In this document: piece after piece, positions 13,497 through 22,759 of the stretch
Numbering within the stretch: position 1 is the stretch's first letter
How the letters are laid out: the number at the start of each line of letters is the position of its first letter
Virus record (IMG/VR): IMGVR_UViG_3300035562_000124
Span: 1-48,093 of that record
Strand: one strand, 5' to 3'
DNA length: 48,093 bases
DNA from: a virus
Lineage: Duplodnaviria; Caudoviricetes
Position numbers and translations under genes: made by a program
Notes under the pieces: generated by a model
What the model was told of the DNA's origin: nothing
The model's database searches: none
Seen by the model: only the letters and a program-made list of their open reading frames with translations

Positions 13497-14669
13497 ATGG
13501 ACAATTTTAGTACGGTACTATCAATTTGCAGGGTTGCCATGGAGAACCCTACATCAACACTTACAGGTCACATCAAGCGATTGGCGAGTAAGTTGCGTGC
13601 CAAAGGAGACGAGAAGAATGCAGGCTCCTTAGAGAAACTGTTGGATTCCCGAGGTGATGAGCTTTCTTTAATTCCTAGCCGCTTAACTTTAACTAAGCCA
13701 ACCATTAGCTGGGGAGAGAAACTAACTAAAGTAGTAAGGCCGCCGGTTGATCGTGAAACTGGAAATACTCTTGCAGAAATTATTTTTCCGGATGGAAGTA
13801 ACGAGAAACCAATTTTTGATAGTGTTTTTGATGGTGCACTTGATTCTATGCTTACGGAATGGACACACGCAGATCTATTACGTGAAAATGGAATTGGTAC
13901 TCCATTAAGTTGTTTATTATATGGCGCTCCAGGGACTGGAAAGACTAAAACTGCTTTTTACATATCAGAACGGCTCTCATTGCCAATTGTTGTCGCTAAA
14001 TTGGATGGGTTAATTTCTTCCTTCCTTGGGACAACTGCTAGGAATATAGCTGGATTGTTTGACTTTGCTAATAGATATCACTGCATTTTATTGCTGGATG
14101 AATTTGATGCTATTGCAAAGATTAGAGATGATCCTCATGAATTAGGAGAAATAAAGCGAGTTGTGAATACATTGCTTCAATGTATTGATAATAGGGTGAA
14201 AAAAGGCTTCACCATCGCAATAACTAACCATGAAAAACTGCTAGACAGTGCTATTTGGCGGCGGTTTGATACTAAAGTAAATATACCGAAGCCAACCACT
14301 GATGTCAGGAGAAAACTGATAGAGTTGCTAATGTCTAAAAGTTTAAGCGAAACCGAGATTTCTCTTTTAACATGGATTACGGTTGGTTATACAGGCTCCG
14401 ATATAGAGTCTCTTTGTAATTTCTTGAAGAGACAGCATGTTTTATCTAATGAAAAAGTAAATATTATCGATGGTTTGAAACGATATGTTTATTTGAATGA
14501 TGGTGTTTTGAAGGAAGAAATGAAAGAGCTATTAACTTCTGATAATGATGTTATGGCGTATAGACTTTTTTCAAATTCAGAAGGAGAATTCACTCAAGAA
14601 ATGCTTTCTGTGATTTTTTCAAGAGATAAATCAACCATAAGCCGTTGGCTAAGTAAAAATAGGGGGTGA
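13497..14669 (+). CDS. ietA: AAA+ ATPase of an IetAS-type module
   Basis: Walker A GAPGTGKT, Walker B LLLDEFD, TNHEKLLDSAIWRRFD; C-terminal HTH; paired with an S8 protease. Confidence 0.85.
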   Translation: MDNFSTVLSICRVAMENPTSTLTGHIKRLASKLRAKGDEKNAGSLEKLLDSRGDELSLIPSRLTLTKPTISWGEKLTKVVRPPVDRETGNTLAEIIFPDGSNEKPIFDSVFDGALDSMLTEWTHADLLRENGIGTPLSCLLYGAPGTGKTKTAFYISERLSLPIVVAKLDGLISSFLGTTARNIAGLFDFANRYHCILLLDEFDAIAKIRDDPHELGEIKRVVNTLLQCIDNRVKKGFTIAITNHEKLLDSAIWRRFDTKVNIPKPTTDVRRKLIELLMSKSLSETEISLLTWITVGYTGSDIESLCNFLKRQHVLSNEKVNIIDGLKRYVYLNDGVLKEEMKELLTSDNDVMAYRLFSNSEGEFTQEMLSVIFSRDKSTISRWLSKNRG

Positions 14670-14673
14670 TAGT

Positions 14674-17085
14674 ATGAAAAACAATCCAATTCAAATAGTT
14701 CTAAATACATCGGATTATATTGATTCGCCGACCCCAGATGCCAACGGGAGTAATAAGGAATTTTATCCGAACAAAGACGATGCATTTAAAAAGCATAAAA
14801 ATGAAATTTTGAGCTCTATGTTTGAATTACAATCTTCTTTATTGAAAAAAGAACATCATACCCTTTTTGCTCATGTGACACTTAAACCTGCTGGATGGGC
14901 CAAATCACATAGACCAAATAAAAGCATTTTTAAAAGTAGCCTGGTTCCTTATGTCGGTGGTGGTGATATAGGTGAGATGATTGTTGAGGTCAATGTCGAG
15001 AATATTGAATCTATAATAACATCAATAGAAAAAGCAGAAGAGTTCACGAAGGAAAAATTCAACGAAAAAACGAGAAAGATTGAATTCAAACCTTCGAGGA
15101 GCAAAAGTGAAGTTGGGGCAATCAGTTCCATAAGAGAACATGATGAGAGTGATAAAAGAAATTTCTCTATTGAAATGGCATTTAAATGGCTACAGAACCC
15201 AGATTGTGGAGGGGTATACTTTGTAGAAGTATTCACGCTAGGTGATCATCAAGATGAGAAAACCTCAAGAATAAACACGCTTCATGATGATTTTGATTCT
15301 TTACTAGAAATGATATCTATTGAAAGTAAAAAATATGTTCGAACCGGAAAAAATAGTGGTAGTGTATATTATGTCATCTATGTTCCTGAGGGGAAAAATG
15401 GAGATATAGAATTTCATAGATCATTGCTGACAATAATAAACAACCACGATGCAGTTAAGAAAATACATTTGCCTCCAGTAATTACAGCATCTCAGCAAGA
15501 TATTTTATATTATAATGACAAAGGTAATTCTTTTGATTTTAACGTTGAGTCTGATGTCGATTATCCTATAGTTGGTATTGTAGACACAGGTGTTGCCTCT
15601 ATTGAACATTTAGATGATTGGCGAGTTGGTGGTGCTGACTTTATTATGTCAACTAAGCAGGACCGTTCACATGGCACATTTATTGCTGGATTGCTCTCTG
15701 CGGGCAATGTGGTCAATCCTAATTTGTCTGCCTTGAAAGAGGTTCCATGCAAATTTTATGACCTTGATTTATACCCAACAAATAAGAATGAATTCTCATC
15801 TAATTATCCGCGAGGATTTGTCGATTTTTTACGACAATTAGATGCTGAAGTTCAAGATGCGAAGGGACATGGAGTCAGGATATTCAATATGAGTTTATCA
15901 TTGATGATTCCGGTTGATGATGATTCTTATAGCTTTTATGCTTCCATGATTGATGACATCAGTGATGATAATGATGTGATATTTGTACTTCCGGCAGGTA
16001 ATCTTACGGAACAACTGCTTCGTGATGACTGGCCTGAGTCACACGCAGATATTTTAAGCATGCTAGCAAAATATCGCTACCAAGGTAAAGATAAGATATT
16101 ACAACCATGTGAAAGCGTCAGATCTATTTCTGTCGGTGCATTAGATCCAGCACATCATGAAAAAAATTTAAAACCTTCCCGCTATACGAGGCGTGGCCCT
16201 GGTCCATCATTAGGAGTTAAGCCAGATTTATGCCATATCGGAGGGGCGTTAGAAGAAGACTCTGGATTGTATTCACTTTCTGTATCGGGAGGAGTGGTAT
16301 CAAGTTGTGGTACCAGTTACGCGGCTCCTTTAGTTGCTAAGACATTGGCTGTTTTAGATAAACAAATAACAGGTTATGTTTCACGGGAAGTACTCTATGG
16401 CCTACTAATTCATCATGCACAAATTCCAAAAGGATTACGCAAGAAAGAACTTAAGGAAATATCACGCGATTTTGTGGGTTTTGGATTACCTCCAGTAGCC
16501 GAAGATATGGTGCTATACGATGATAGCTCCATAACCCTCGTGTTTAATGGTAATTTCCGGCATCAACATGATTTGCTATCTTTCGATCTTACTTGGCCAC
16601 AATGTCTTACTGATGAGGAAGGAAAATGTAGAGGAGATGTGACAATGACTCTTGTATATTCTCCTTATTGCGATAATAGATTTGGCAATGAATTTATAAG
16701 GTTGAATCTTGACGCTTGCCTGCGCCAAGCTGTTTTAAATGAAGATACTGGCGAGGTGGTTTTTAAAGGGGCAATCAAGGACTCTATAAAATCATCTCAT
16801 GAAAGTGAATTGATTAAGAACGGTATGAAATGGTGGCCAAGTAAAAAATTTGAATGGAAGTTTAGAGGTAAAGGTAGTTCTTCTTCCTGGAGAGTTGTGA
16901 TTGAGTCGTTATTGCGTAGCGACGTGATATTTCCTTCAGAGGGGATTCCATTCTCTGTGTTGCTAACTATTAGCGACCCAAAGAAAGGAGGCAAGGTATT
17001 TAATGAGGTGCGCACCTCACTTGTTTCAGCCGGTGTGAATATTGCTGACATCAGAACTTCAAACGTTATCAGAACAAGACGGTAA
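14674..17085 (+). CDS. ietS: Subtilisin-like S8 serine protease of an IetAS-type module
   Basis: Catalytic D (IVDTG), H (SHGTFIAG), S (GTSYAAP) and oxyanion N (PAGN); no signal peptide. Confidence 0.85.
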   Translation: MKNNPIQIVLNTSDYIDSPTPDANGSNKEFYPNKDDAFKKHKNEILSSMFELQSSLLKKEHHTLFAHVTLKPAGWAKSHRPNKSIFKSSLVPYVGGGDIGEMIVEVNVENIESIITSIEKAEEFTKEKFNEKTRKIEFKPSRSKSEVGAISSIREHDESDKRNFSIEMAFKWLQNPDCGGVYFVEVFTLGDHQDEKTSRINTLHDDFDSLLEMISIESKKYVRTGKNSGSVYYVIYVPEGKNGDIEFHRSLLTIINNHDAVKKIHLPPVITASQQDILYYNDKGNSFDFNVESDVDYPIVGIVDTGVASIEHLDDWRVGGADFIMSTKQDRSHGTFIAGLLSAGNVVNPNLSALKEVPCKFYDLDLYPTNKNEFSSNYPRGFVDFLRQLDAEVQDAKGHGVRIFNMSLSLMIPVDDDSYSFYASMIDDISDDNDVIFVLPAGNLTEQLLRDDWPESHADILSMLAKYRYQGKDKILQPCESVRSISVGALDPAHHEKNLKPSRYTRRGPGPSLGVKPDLCHIGGALEEDSGLYSLSVSGGVVSSCGTSYAAPLVAKTLAVLDKQITGYVSREVLYGLLIHHAQIPKGLRKKELKEISRDFVGFGLPPVAEDMVLYDDSSITLVFNGNFRHQHDLLSFDLTWPQCLTDEEGKCRGDVTMTLVYSPYCDNRFGNEFIRLNLDACLRQAVLNEDTGEVVFKGAIKDSIKSSHESELIKNGMKWWPSKKFEWKFRGKGSSSSWRVVIESLLRSDVIFPSEGIPFSVLLTISDPKKGGKVFNEVRTSLVSAGVNIADIRTSNVIRTRR

Positions 17086-18183: not shown

Positions 18184-18464
18184 GTAAGCTAACGAAAGAG
18201 GCCCGTGGGCGTGATTGCCAAGTTCGCTTACCTGGTGTTTGTAATTTCAATCCAGAAACCACCGTATTAGCTCATTTCAAAATTGCAGGCACTTGTGGCA
18301 CTGCCATTAAACCGCCTGATTCTCAGGGGGCCTGGGCTTGCAGCGCGTGCCATGATGAAATTGATCGCCGCACACGGCATATCGATAAAGACACTGTTCG
18401 TCTGTGCCACGCTGAAGGTGTTATGCGGACCCAATATGTTTTGATCTCTGAGGGGAAATTATGA
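18180..18464 (+). CDS. DUF1364 (YbcO-like) putative nuclease
   Basis: ARGRDCQVRLPGVCNFNPETTVLAH...AWACSACHDEID. Confidence 0.9.
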   Translation: MSKLTKEARGRDCQVRLPGVCNFNPETTVLAHFKIAGTCGTAIKPPDSQGAWACSACHDEIDRRTRHIDKDTVRLCHAEGVMRTQYVLISEGKL

Positions 18465-19111
18465 GGCTCAAATATGCTCTGACCATCGCAGATCCGAAAT
18501 CAGCCCAAATTGTTGCATATCAGGCCCGGTCAACGGGGGATAGTCATCTAACTAAAATCGACGTATTGACTGCATTAGGAATGACTCAGGCGCGGCACCG
18601 GGGAGGGTTATGTTTGCTTTATGCCAAATACACTAAAGATGTTGATGCGGGCAGGACTGCGCTAAAGGAACTGACAAAATACGCACAATCGCAGGCTCGA
18701 AAATTTGTGGGTAAAATTCCCGGTAGGCGCGGTGGTATTGCCGTTAGAACATTAGCCATGTTGGCACTGGAAGAGTATTGCCGGACTGCCGATACTCCCG
18801 GCGCTAAATGCCGGTGTGGTGGCAGTGGGGAAGTCTGTGATCGGAAAGAAACCGAACGCACGGGCAAGTTGGTGATCATCCCCTGCAAAAAGTGCCATGG
18901 CACTGGACTGAAACCTATATCTCAAACTCGCGCACATCATTCCATCGTCGCTTTGGTTCCTGGTGTATCCAGGGCAACTTGGTATCGAGTCTGGTCACGC
19001 TATTACGAAGCATTGTTGGCGTGGTGTTATTCACAAGAGTCGATTGCAGAAGCGGAATACCAGCGTATCACTGGCATGTCTGAATTAAATAAAGAAACCA
19101 TTGCAAAATGA
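18461..19111 (+). CDS. Late antiterminator Q (lambda-type zinc finger)
   Basis: DVLTALGMTQ, CRCGGSG, CKKCHGTG; followed by pR' and tR'. Confidence 0.85.
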   Translation: MRLKYALTIADPKSAQIVAYQARSTGDSHLTKIDVLTALGMTQARHRGGLCLLYAKYTKDVDAGRTALKELTKYAQSQARKFVGKIPGRRGGIAVRTLAMLALEEYCRTADTPGAKCRCGGSGEVCDRKETERTGKLVIIPCKKCHGTGLKPISQTRAHHSIVALVPGVSRATWYRVWSRYYEALLAWCYSQESIAEAEYQRITGMSELNKETIAK

Positions 19112-19272: not shown

Positions 19273-19349
19273 GGCCCTTTAGCTCAGTCGGTTAGAGCAA
19301 TCGACTCATAATCGACAGGTCACTGGTTCAAGTCCAGTAAGGGCCACCA
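19273..19349 (+). tRNA. tRNA with CAT anticodon, ileX/ileZ-like (tRNA-Ile2)
   Basis: GGCCCTT/AAGGGCC acceptor stem, CTCATAA loop, GGTTCAAGTCC T-arm, CCA end. Confidence 0.9.
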
Positions 19350-19351
19350 AA

Positions 19352-19426
19352 CCGCCATTAGCTCAGCAGGAAGAGCAACGACCATTAAGTTGTAGGTACG
19401 GGGTTCGAGGCCTCGATGGCGGACCA
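19352..19426 (+). tRNA. tRNA-like gene with a non-canonical 6-nt anticodon loop (identity undetermined)
   Basis: CCGCCAT/ATGGCGG acceptor stem, D-arm GCTC/GAGC, T-loop TTCGAGG, CCA; anticodon arm ACGAC-CATTAA-GTTGT. Confidence 0.75.
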
Positions 19427-19428
19427 AT

Positions 19429-19503
19429 GCGGTCATCGTATAATGGATATTACCTCAGCCTTCCAAACTGATGATGCGGGTTCGATTCCCGCTGACCGCT
19501 CCA
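19429..19503 (+). tRNA. tRNA-Gly(TCC)
   Basis: Closely resembles glyT; CTTCCAA loop, CCA end; one C-A mismatch in the anticodon stem. Confidence 0.9.
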
Positions 19504-19505
19504 AA

Positions 19506-19647
19506 CACAACAGAAGGGCGCATTTAGTTTAGATACGCACTATCGGACCCTTTGATGGGGAGTTTCTAAGTGCGTCCCTCGGTGTGAAGTGACAGTCGGG
19601 AAAGACTGGCAACTATGATAAGCCTCGTAATGAGATAGTGGTTTTTT
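19506..19647 (+). ncRNA. Putative structured RNA, unit 1 (long stem, GAAAGA-loop hairpin, U-tract)
   Basis: GGGCGCATTTAG/CTAAGTGCGTCC stem, then TGACAGTCGGGAAAGACTGGCAAC at 19590. Confidence 0.45.
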
Positions 19648-19738
19648 AACGGGTCCATACAACACCAACGAAAAATAAAGCAAATAAAATGGCCAAGCTA
19701 CAAACCAACAGCAACAAAATAATCCAATCACGCATCAT
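19646..19738 (-). CDS. 30-aa single-TM peptide, paralog 1 (not in ORF track)
   Basis: MMRDWIILLLLVCSLAILFALFFVGVVWTR; GAAGG RBS; frame-conserved paralog at 20483-20572. Confidence 0.7.
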   Translation of the reverse strand: MMRDWIILLLLVCSLAILFALFFVGVVWTR

Positions 19739-19914
19739 TACCTTCACTGTTAAAAAAATGCCCTGGGACAGCATTACACCTCAGGGCTAAAAGGTTTCTT
19801 ATTTTTATTGGCACTGGCGCGGTACCAGTGTAAATAGTCTAGTAATTTAAATATAACTTTCTATCTTTCATGATAAAAAGATATTTTATATCGCAAGATT
19901 GAATTTCCTTGCAT

Positions 19915-20103
19915 TCAATTGTCGCAATGTTGATGGTGTTTAGCCCGCAATCCTGTCCTTGGCGTATCTCAATAAATGGGTTGTGCAGATTTCAACCTCC
20001 TGTCGGTGTCACCGTCAGCGTGGTCAATTGTTCAGGTAATCATAGACAGCCGGGAAAGACCGTTACCCATTTTTGAACCTTGGTCTAAACGCCGGGATTT
20101 TTT
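19915..20103 (+). ncRNA. Putative structured RNA, unit 2
   Basis: TGTTGATGGTG/CACCGTCAGCG stem flanked by CAATTG; GACAGCCGGGAAAGACCG at 20045; weak hairpin and U-tract after it. Confidence 0.4.
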
Positions 20104-20179
20104 ACCTGTGATCTACGAGCATTCTGAAAGTTAGGTTTGCTTATATTATTTTAATAAAATCTTGGTTAAGATGTTCTTT

Positions 20180-20292
20180 CTACAGTGAATCCCCCTAGCG
20201 GTGGGGCGAATCAGCAATGTGAGTCAATGCTTAAAAGGACGCGAGTCATGGATGTTGGCCAAAGGCTCACCGGGAGGCACCCGGCACTGTAG
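20180..20292 (+). ncRNA. Putative multi-stem structured RNA
   Basis: 8-bp closing helix CTACAGTG/CACTGTAG enclosing CCCC-TAGCGGT-GGGG and CCGGG-AGGCA-CCCGG hairpins. Confidence 0.5.
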
Positions 20293-20484
20293 TTCCAAAG
20301 CATCAGAGGGGCACAATCTCTGCTCATACTCTTGTGTTCTTCGATGTGGAGTGGCTGTTGGGGAAGACCAATAAACTTTGGAACGCTGCAATAAAAATTG
20401 TTGCGAATAAGAACCAAGGGTTAATTGCTGACAGCCGGGAAAGACCGGCAACCATTCGAACCCTGGCATTAGCCGGGGTTTTTT
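20292..20484 (+). ncRNA. Putative structured RNA, unit 3 (two GAAAGA/GGAAGA-loop hairpins and a terminator)
   Basis: GTTCCAAAG/CTTTGGAAC stem; TGTTGG-GGAAGA-CCAATA; TGACAGCCGGGAAAGACCGGCAAC at 20429; CCCTGGC-ATTA-GCCGGGG followed by T-tract. Confidence 0.45.
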
Positions 20485-20572
20485 AATGGTGCCAAATAGC
20501 GCTGACGAAAAACAGCGAAAACAAAATAGCTGAACTAACAACCAGCAACAACAATACTATCCAATCACGCAT
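20483..20572 (-). CDS. 29-aa single-TM peptide, paralog 2 (not in ORF track)
   Basis: MRDWIVLLLLVVSSAILFSLFFVSAIWHH; paralog of 19646-19738. Confidence 0.7.
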   Translation of the reverse strand: MRDWIVLLLLVVSSAILFSLFFVSAIWHH

Positions 20573-20784
20573 ATTTACACTCGTTGCTGAAAAAAGATCC
20601 CTGAGACGGCAAAGTGCTCAGGGCAGGGGTTTAAAGTTCTCATTATTGCTGATATGGGTGTTATACCAACATAAATATCTTAGCAGCGTAACATAACCAT
20701 TCAATTCAATATCATTTCAATCTGTAACTGAGGGGCTGCACTTCGGTGTGGCCCTTTTCCTTTTCTGAAACCCGGAGCCGGGCA

Positions 20785-21141
20785 ATGAATAATCAACACC
20801 TGCCACCGGGATTCCTGGAGGTAACTTTGCTGTGGATGAAAACTAATGCACCTGTGCTTTATGGATCGTTCGCTGCGTTCGGCATGGCCACCTTGCTGAC
20901 CTTGCGTGATGGCAAATCGTGGCTGGATGCGCTCTATGCCGGGGCCATTTGTTTGCTGATCTCCTTGGGCGTTATCAATTCCCTTGAACTGTTTGGCGTG
21001 AGCCAGGATAACGCGTTGCTGATTGGCGTTGTGATAGGTGGGATAGGTGTAGAGCGCTGCCTGGCAATAATCCGCACCTTTTCCAGCATGAAGACCAATA
21101 TCCCCATGGATGACAAGGAGAAACCGAAAAATGACCGTTAA
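20785..21141 (+). CDS. Holin (lambda-like, three TM segments)
   Basis: GGAG RBS; three hydrophobic segments, GGIGVER, charged C-terminus; directly before the endolysin. Confidence 0.85.
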   Translation: MNNQHLPPGFLEVTLLWMKTNAPVLYGSFAAFGMATLLTLRDGKSWLDALYAGAICLLISLGVINSLELFGVSQDNALLIGVVIGGIGVERCLAIIRTFSSMKTNIPMDDKEKPKNDR

Positions 21142-22228: not shown

Positions 22229-22759
22229 CTATGCTATACGTTTGCCAATAGTGGCAGGCAACGGGACTATAACTTCATTAAATTCTGGGTGTGTTGGGAT
22301 AAATCCCTTCATACTTTTTCCTGACCAGTACATATCCATATGTTGTGAGAAAACCAATGTTGTGGCCGTAGGGTTAATGATATTCATGTCTGCTACATGA
22401 ATGTTTTTTTCATCGCACGTGACCTCATAGATAGGAAAGTTTGCTGGGCCACCCCTATCTCGAAATTGAATAGCTTCTTCTATTGATTGGCAGCAAAAAA
22501 TGCTTACAAACCTTGACGGTTTATGTGGGTGGAAGGCTCTGCGGTGCATTTCAAGGTGAAGTTCTAATGCTGACTCCATATGTTTAGGTGTTGAGTGCCC
22601 ACTCCAGAAATACAATCGTCCATGGTGTGAGAGGCCGTTAGGGAAAAGTCTGTCTAAATATTCATCTAGTTCAGGGCGATTGACGCTCTTCTTGATTAAA
22701 GAAATGTGCTTATTGTTTTGGTAAAAACCTAATCTATCTACTGTGTATAAGGTGATCAT
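22229..22759 (-). CDS. Moron, DUF2441-like putative ADP-ribosyltransferase-fold protein
   Basis: ELHLEMHRRAFHPHKPSRFVSIF, YW and EFNEVIV motifs; antisense to the late operon; AT-rich. Confidence 0.65.
   Translation of the reverse strand: MITLYTVDRLGFYQNNKHISLIKKSVNRPELDEYLDRLFPNGLSHHGRLYFWSGHSTPKHMESALELHLEMHRRAFHPHKPSRFVSIFCCQSIEEAIQFRDRGGPANFPIYEVTCDEKNIHVADMNIINPTATTLVFSQHMDMYWSGKSMKGFIPTHPEFNEVIVPLPATIGKRIA

Follow-up and report, generated by a model that had tools for sequence, protein, structure and literature searches.

Tandem minus-strand modules, predicted to join a short RNA to a membrane micropeptide, in the moron region of a Serratia-type prophage

The moron region between the Q and holin genes of a lambdoid prophage contains two copies of what is very probably a self-contained minus-strand cassette, each composed of a promoter, a short RNA and an open reading frame (ORF) for a small membrane peptide. 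The window, by which we mean the whole stretch of 48,093 nucleotides that was analysed, is a complete lambdoid provirus record, integrase included; the protein names among close relatives of its holin and Q are mostly Serratia, and the prophage is Serratia-type as judged by sequence. The whole functional reading, in which the cassette acts in the lysogen to yield an ∼80-nt RNA together with a scarce membrane peptide made by read-through, is put forward more tentatively, and we rate its chances at slightly less than even. The genes and RNAs that frame the two copies are these:

18461-19111: Q, upstream of the tRNA genes
19273..19503, plus strand: three tRNA genes (CAT; a tRNA with a shortened loop; Gly-TCC), context 3′ of Q
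20150..20339, plus strand: STnc100 sRNA (RF02076; 76.3 bits against a gathering threshold of 47)
20785..21141, plus strand: lambda-family holin, followed by M15 endolysin and spanins

An earlier note on this DNA listed the ORFs and hairpins of the locus but overlooked STnc100. An IetAS defence system (AAA ATPase and S8 peptidase; PADLOC E 1e-149 and 4e-284) occupies positions 13497-17085 on the plus strand, and a second antisense moron (22229-22759, minus strand), located 3′ of the lysis genes, encodes a 176-aa protein of PHROG 5663 with a weak DUF2441 score. The middle tRNA (19352-19426, plus strand) has a shortened anticodon loop and an unreadable anticodon, and because the shortened loop recurs in two other loci (L126 and L269) it may represent a defective tRNA or a decoy that has been conserved.

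Two small membrane-peptide genes and their relatives

19646..19735, minus strand: copy 1 peptide ORF, 29 aa, single predicted transmembrane (TM) helix; in-frame alternative ATG at 19738
20483..20572, minus strand: copy 2 peptide ORF, 29 aa, single predicted TM helix

Both ORFs had been proposed earlier and both are present, with the start of copy 1 now set at 19735. A 42-aa extension of copy 1 beginning at 19774 was rejected as the true start, as it runs through the upstream terminator and is not conserved. The copies lie 837 nt apart in the window, and there is one copy only in each of the other loci. They align without gaps, differ at 25 of 87 nucleotides and share 20 of 29 residues (69%), with pS of 0.73, pN of 0.16 and a dN/dS of 0.07. 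When substitutions were placed at random in 20,000 trials, a start codon, an open frame and an uncharged hydrophobic core were together retained in 2.5%, and the 20 identities in 0.12%. The earlier suggestion that these paralogs are selected at the protein level is therefore borne out, and they represent a tandem duplication of real small membrane-peptide genes. The copy 1 peptide has a best 19-residue hydropathy of 3.27, values among the peptides compared span 2.4-3.3, and residues 5-23 are uncharged.

Four further members bring the family to six peptides (29, 29, 29, 29, 29 and 28 aa). One is in an IMG/VR provirus (L128, one of 11 holin-relative loci and the only one with the peptide), one is on a metagenome contig (L164, the single true member among 87 loose-pattern matches), one is an S. 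grimesii ‘uncharacterised protein’ (P0042, CAI2793946.1) from a full HMMER search with three matches, one of them a repetitive false positive, and one is in another IMG/VR provirus (L269, one true among six pattern matches). Aside from the S. grimesii protein, the members come from Serratia-linked prophage late regions. All six begin M-R-[DE]-W, and M1, R2, W4 and F22 are invariant; since the MR[DE]W codons helped to retrieve the homologs, these residues are to some extent conserved by construction. The C-terminal ends are WTR, WHH, WNY, ITH, WSY and FWL. With the homologs included, dN/dS is 0.07-0.43 over six pairs (Fisher p from <0.0001 to 0.06), pS exceeds pN in all ten nucleotide pairs, four of them involving L269, and no frameshift occurs across the five nucleotide sequences, whose identity falls to as little as 57% while ORF length stays fixed. 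We take these sequence comparisons to confirm that both ORFs are real and under purifying selection. If they did not encode protein and were by-products of a U-rich antisense region that had been duplicated, then their weak ribosome-binding sites and their omission by most gene callers would be accounted for, but the dN/dS values, the fixed length and the lack of frameshifts would not, nor would the independent calling of the S. grimesii homolog, and this explanation is extremely improbable.

The earlier reader did not recognise the family, and we find no match to it above cut-off in Pfam, NCBIfam, PHROGs or PADLOC, libraries that hold only families curated by their date (best E 0.05; the best NCBIfam scores, at E 0.05-0.3, fall far under the cut-offs). 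Nor is there a profile match to Hok, Ldr/Fst, Ibs, TisB, DinQ, ZorO, YoaK and similar small proteins. The nearest Atlas clusters are YoaK, UPF0387/YohO and YncL at 0.78-0.80, and as all neighbours are at or below 0.82, under 0.9, they are leads only. The protein collection lacks all five exact 29-33-aa forms, which most gene callers overlook, and word-index protein searches return only the window's own called ORF and the S. grimesii protein. No true homolog was recovered by tblastn against phages or by blastn against E. coli genomes, phages and plasmids; none of the 13 matches from a pattern scan of GTDB genomes was a family member, and a strict metagenome pattern gave no matches. True members in the viral pattern scans numbered 0 of 5, 1 of 3, 1 of 3, 1 of 6 and 2 of 44 matches, and those besides L269 are the L128 record again. 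With six peptides found, the family looks rare in the collections searched.

A TM peptide encoded directly upstream of the holin could be imagined to modulate lysis timing in the manner of an antiholin. The ORFs are antisense to the late operon, though, and thus likely to be silenced when the holin is made, and most close relatives of the holin are without the peptide (it is present at the one L128 locus among the 11). Furthermore, the L269 peptide lies beside an unrelated holin/lysozyme pair, and the 4-kb L164 locus, a remnant of a prophage next to a host gene, contains no lysis gene among its ORFs. We consider an antiholin-like role very improbable.

The upstream short RNA candidate and the likely route to the peptide

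19836..19842, minus strand: copy 1 predicted promoter, with −13C and −10 hexamer TAGACT (19841-19836), 6-nt A/T-rich spacer, weak −35
20677..20683, minus strand: copy 2 predicted promoter, with −13C and −10 hexamer TAAGAT (20682-20677)
19752..19829, minus strand: copy 1 short RNA candidate, 78 nt, with 5′ hairpin (19829-19813), A-rich linker and intrinsic terminator (19787-19752)
20590..20670, minus strand: copy 2 short RNA candidate, 81 nt, with 5′ hairpin, linker and terminator (20624-20590)

The earlier note described a conserved hairpin and U-tract upstream of each ORF, and these are indeed found at 19787-19752 and 20624-20590, but the promoter and the 5′ hairpin had been overlooked; each hairpin forms the terminator of a minus-strand RNA candidate of 75-81 nt. 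The unit opens with C-TAnnnT, which an A/T-rich spacer of 6-7 nt separates from a 5-bp hairpin with RYTGG at its start; a linker of 25-30 nt then leads to a terminator of the form GCCCTGA...CAGGG followed by 6-8 T, and this whole anatomy of −10 box, spacer, covarying 5′ hairpin, linker and terminator is present in six of six copies. With +1 set at the base 7 nt past the hexamer, the RNAs would be 78, 81, 81, 81, 75 and 81 nt long.

Promoter spacing is identical in all six homologous units, and the −35 is poor in most of them. All six copies have, by sequence, the features of a sigmaS-type promoter (−13C, a TAnnnT −10, an A/T-rich discriminator and a weak −35), of which the −13C and the A/T-rich discriminator are given as sigmaS features in the part of PMC3141248 drawn on here, and a stationary-phase promoter is thus predicted. 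A stock promoter scan did not pick up the conserved −10 boxes. The promoter and 5′ motif had been defined on four loci and the plasmid described below before L269 was found, and L269, which was retrieved only through the terminator half and the start codons, has both at the expected spacing. Within the 48-kb window the promoter-plus-RYTGG pattern occurs four times, twice at these copies.

Across the six sequences 96% of cells in the structure are paired and 3 of 13 pairs are changed on both sides; the covariation score was reached by none of 500 shuffles, and slid controls pair at 31-55%, results which, coming from six related sequences, are supportive rather than a probability. The 5′ stem of L269 shows compensatory changes, and G-U pairs, which occur in two of the six stems, point to an RNA stem and not a DNA operator. 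Strong terminators (−13 to −16 kcal/mol) are predicted, with a pairing probability of 0.99 and no alternative or antiterminator fold. Taken alone the terminator is generic, as 42 of 44 viral loci with the terminator pattern have neither the promoter motif nor the peptide, the other two being peptide loci. The linker is poorly conserved across copies, so that no shared seed is visible.

The RNA unit also occurs without the peptide. In the S. marcescens plasmid pE17 (L261:2476-2564) the promoter and an ∼75-nt RNA unit, with no peptide ORF, lie on a conjugative plasmid between a carbonic anhydrase gene and IS fragments, the latter beginning ∼90 nt downstream of the unit. The promoter and 5′ stem of this copy are intact and its terminator stem is perfect, which shows, at the level of sequence, that the short RNA is independent of the peptide, with the caveat that the peptide may have been lost recently. 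This same caveat tempers its use against the idea that the upstream RNA is nothing but an attenuating leader, acting as a dose limiter or conditional terminator and having no role as an sRNA. The variable linker and the presence of the ORF after five of six leaders would suit such a leader, but neither a leader peptide nor an antiterminator fold was found in the upstream RNA, and with pE17 retaining the unit in the absence of an ORF we regard this explanation as improbable.

The ATG follows the U-tract by 12-17 nt in five of five loci. This agrees with the attenuated, read-through layout, with a terminator upstream of the ORF, that the earlier note had recognised, and as it leaves no space for a second promoter we infer that the ORF is reached by read-through only. 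In three of the four copies tested (1, 2 and L128) the Shine-Dalgarno sequence pairs weakly, at −3.4 to −4.0 kcal/mol. A strong terminator, no antiterminator and a weak Shine-Dalgarno sequence would together keep the dose of peptide low.

Plus-strand RNA elements and the antisense alternative

19512..19647, plus strand: late-operon RNA element 1, with a long stem-loop, an GGAAAGAC hairpin (19590-19611) and a weak terminator; its T-run abuts the copy 1 stop
20044..20104, plus strand: degenerate GGAAAGAC hairpin (20044-20065, loop at ∼20053) and terminator
20340..20485, plus strand: late-operon element with degenerate (loop at ∼20361) and canonical (20429-20450) GGAAAGAC hairpins; its strong terminator abuts the copy 2 stop

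Each peptide stop codon overlaps the final two T of a plus-strand T-run, as the earlier note had observed for both copies, although the copy 1 side has a weak plus-strand terminator, at −7.2 kcal/mol over 60 nt, compared with −29.5 kcal/mol over 55 nt on the copy 2 side. The sequence TGACAGYCGGGAAAGACYGGCAAC is found at 19590 and 20429; these two GGAAAGAC copies had been seen near the peptides, but two degenerate copies, with loops at ∼20053 and ∼20361, had been missed. In total the window has five TGAC-stem-GGAAAGAC hairpins, four on the plus strand in the late leader (including that at ∼20352-20372) and one at ∼6632-6612 on the minus strand in the early left operon, every copy being in the sense orientation of the operon that contains it. 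The element was not found in Rfam, where only a weak, sub-threshold IsrJ-like score was obtained (27 bits against a gathering threshold of 37, for the element at 20340..20485), and a narrow literature search for the motif string turned up no report. Homology to T4 rnaC or rnaD was considered and rejected, the motif being absent from both.

If the GGAAAGAC element were the cognate antitoxin of the peptide, as had been proposed, the two should travel together, and they do not. We estimate 1200 matches to GACAGYCGGGAAAGACYGGCA in IMG/VR, and among 120 such loci that were fetched, whose flanks are unrelated except among closely related phages, none has a family peptide; a same-strand tRNA lies within 300 nt in 23 of 110 distinct contexts, and a convergent short TM ORF of any kind in 1 of 104. 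Late-operon RNA element 1 itself occurs without the peptide in L007, L031 and L131. The distance from element to peptide stop is 39, 37 and 32 nt in three of five homologous loci and 209 nt in L164, and L269 has no GGAAAGAC element within 1925 nt of the peptide. Pairing between the element and the coding region does not go beyond that of shuffles (fractions 0.07-0.76). Being widespread without the peptide, at variable distance from it and without pairing, the element is best seen as a neighbour in the late transcript and was rejected as a dedicated antitoxin; these sequence data show the peptide to be independent of it. The ∼1200 matches across unrelated phages suggest that the GGAAAGAC hairpin is a generic transcription or processing signal.

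Several other features of these elements were recorded. Two related long stem-loops precede GGAAAGAC hairpins at 19512-19585 and 20300-20350 on the plus strand, and the first of these, which has no Rfam match, recurs with a variable apex in L007, L031, L128, L131, L164 and L269. Upstream of the hairpin, four phage loci (L036, L047, L035 and L094) have GGAAAGAC and TGACCAG words repeated in tandem, an arrangement reminiscent of a protein-binding RNA with multiple sites. In L164 (positions 1900-2900) the module, GGAAAGAC elements and tRNA-Gly fragments are found in a prophage remnant adjoining transposase fragments and an ORF that resembles an O-antigen ligase by sequence reading and not by profile match, which suggests that the module was retained after the prophage decayed.

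A convergent arrangement resembling a toxin-antitoxin system of type I could still operate if the peptide acted as a membrane toxin and plus-strand RNAs (the GGAAAGAC elements and the STnc100 region) neutralised its read-through mRNA by overlapping it at the 3′ end, serving prophage stabilisation or dormancy. In none of the five loci is the ORF followed within 400 nt by an intrinsic terminator on its own strand, so that a read-through RNA would overlap the plus-strand RNAs at its 3′ end and might decay by this route, which favours the antisense explanation; the stop abuts a plus-strand terminator in three of five loci, and a tandem duplicate of a TM ORF of <70 aa is a search criterion of Fozo et al. 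(PMC2887945, as far as the text drawn on here goes). However, the plus-strand RNA overlaps just two bases of the ORF, its pairing in trans is the shuffle-like pairing described above, the GGAAAGAC element is without the peptide at 120 of 120 loci, and in L269 and L164 the peptide has no adjacent element.

The start codon lies in a predicted local hairpin, which would also suit a toxin mRNA, and cognate combinations are best in four of four rows, or three of five with L269 added (permutation 3-4/120). The hairpin is no better than in synonymous recodings (fractions 0.065-0.76), and since L269 does not fit and the recodings are about equal we treat a conserved hairpin sequestering the ribosome-binding site as a weak prediction of the folding models. 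Energies of the short RNA with its own mRNA are likewise not consistently best for cognate leader/mRNA pairs, and are clear only for L128. The earlier type I-like or attenuated membrane-peptide interpretation therefore survives in its attenuated layout and tandem TM ORFs and fails in having neither a dedicated co-inherited antisense RNA nor a positively charged C-terminal cluster; we judge a type I system to be fairly unlikely.

A proposed lysogen cassette and its relation to known systems

We favour instead the lysogen cassette introduced at the outset. The predicted sigmaS-type promoter would produce an ∼80-nt structured small RNA in the lysogen in stationary phase, for which the A-rich linker, the 3′ U-tract and a position like that of AsxR and AgvB suggest an Hfq-type regulatory or sponge role. 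Partial read-through of the terminator would then yield small amounts of the 29-aa predicted single-pass membrane peptide, which probably binds a host inner-membrane protein in a regulatory and non-lethal capacity, and so probably tunes the cell envelope of the host during viral dormancy. We favour regulation of a host membrane protein because the helix is uncharged and has no basic tail of the kind found in most type I toxins, and because there is no co-inherited antitoxin. On induction, Q-antiterminated late transcription, which is antisense to the cassette, would overrun it and shut it off; the antisense orientation of the ORFs to the late operon, claimed in the earlier note, is evident from the coordinates.

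Small TM exclusion proteins exist in lambdoid phages, and the peptide might instead be a superinfection-exclusion or anti-phage factor, made constitutively at a low level in the lysogen, that obstructs the entry of DNA, or else a receptor, at the inner membrane, with duplication broadening its range. The antisense moron position with its own promoter, the single TM helix and the divergence of the paralogs (69% identical) are compatible with this, as is the IetAS system borne by the same prophage, but there is no PADLOC or PHROG match and no soluble periplasmic domain, and the strong upstream terminator and weak ribosome-binding site imply low levels. Exclusion is decidedly unlikely, and it is the tandem duplication that keeps it, along with toxicity, in contention at the levels we assign.

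The lysogen cassette can be stated in a stronger form, as a two-output gene in which one stationary-phase promoter would supply both an Hfq-type sponge or regulatory RNA and, through a leaky terminator, a membrane micropeptide for remodelling or guarding the envelope (as regulator, exclusion factor or conditional toxin), with the late transcript as the off switch. This form is speculative and unlikely to hold in every part, but if true it would extend the moron slot of anti-sRNAs in EHEC to Serratia and add a coupled peptide output. With this module, the moron slot of lambdoid prophages gains one micropeptide family that is unannotated and one candidate small RNA family that is uncatalogued; the short antisense RNAs AsxR and AgvB of that slot are known for reprogramming their host. 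Compact, and with predicted starts and ends, the module is directly testable.

Among known systems, type I toxins share with these peptides a length of <70 aa, one TM helix, tandem arrangement, an aromatic C-terminal residue, near-fixed length and a predicted structured 5′ region. Tandem short TM ORFs are a hallmark of such toxins (ZorO/ZorP, Ibs, Ldr/Fst) in the relevant part of Fozo et al. (2010, PMC2887945), and most of them have a positively charged C-terminal cluster, with IbsC, ShoB and DinQ given as exceptions in the part of PMC8309996 cited. The peptides here differ in having no profile match, no charged C-terminal cluster, no PXXXG motif and no dedicated co-inherited antisense RNA. 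They also resemble small single-pass regulators (YoaK, UPF0387/YohO, YncL) in their ∼30-aa length, uncharged TM helix and short polar N-terminus. MgrB, AcrZ and MgtS are enterobacterial small single-pass regulatory proteins.

The Pas sRNAs of EPEC prophages lie beside tRNAs, STnc100 and holin/lysozyme operons and have a 3′ terminator, as here, but they are reported to occur mainly in Escherichia/Shigella (bioRxiv 10.64898/2026.05.13.724894), and neither the copy 1 RNA nor the L269 module had a blastn match among 5,426 E. coli genomes.

The RNA most resembles in its setting the short convergent sRNAs AsxR (RF02703) and AgvB (RF02702) of the PR′ moron region of EHEC lambdoid prophages, as far as these are described in the part of Tree et al. 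(2014, PMC4104026) considered. Both are short minus-strand RNAs with their own promoter (here predicted) and a 3′ terminator, antisense to the late operon or PR′ transcript and convergent on a plus-strand sRNA, which in the equivalent moron region of the Stx2 phage Sp5 is STnc100, present also in this window. The RNA here is longer (75-81 nt against 51-60 nt), has an extra 5′ hairpin and is directly followed by a conserved TM ORF; the minus strand has no Rfam match at E<5 to the conserved ∼42-nt 3′ sequence of AsxR and AgvB, and a structure model of the short RNA (R2) gave E 0.12 at best in the Sakai chromosome. The route to the peptide recalls IsrK in the Gifsy-1 IsrK-orf45-anrP locus, where transcription passes the terminator of a prophage sRNA and enters a short ORF (Hershko-Shalev et al. 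2016, PMC4825925, in the part used here). The predicted likeness extends to a prophage sRNA near Q, a partly read-through terminator, a short ORF, a translation-inactive long form and no separate promoter, whereas IsrK has an antirepressor under its control and lies on the side of the late genes, and the IsrK model has no match at the module, scoring only elsewhere (E 3.3). A narrow literature search found no report of a moron-slot antisense RNA driving a downstream membrane peptide. The module would combine AsxR/AgvB-like and IsrK-like features while belonging by sequence to neither family.
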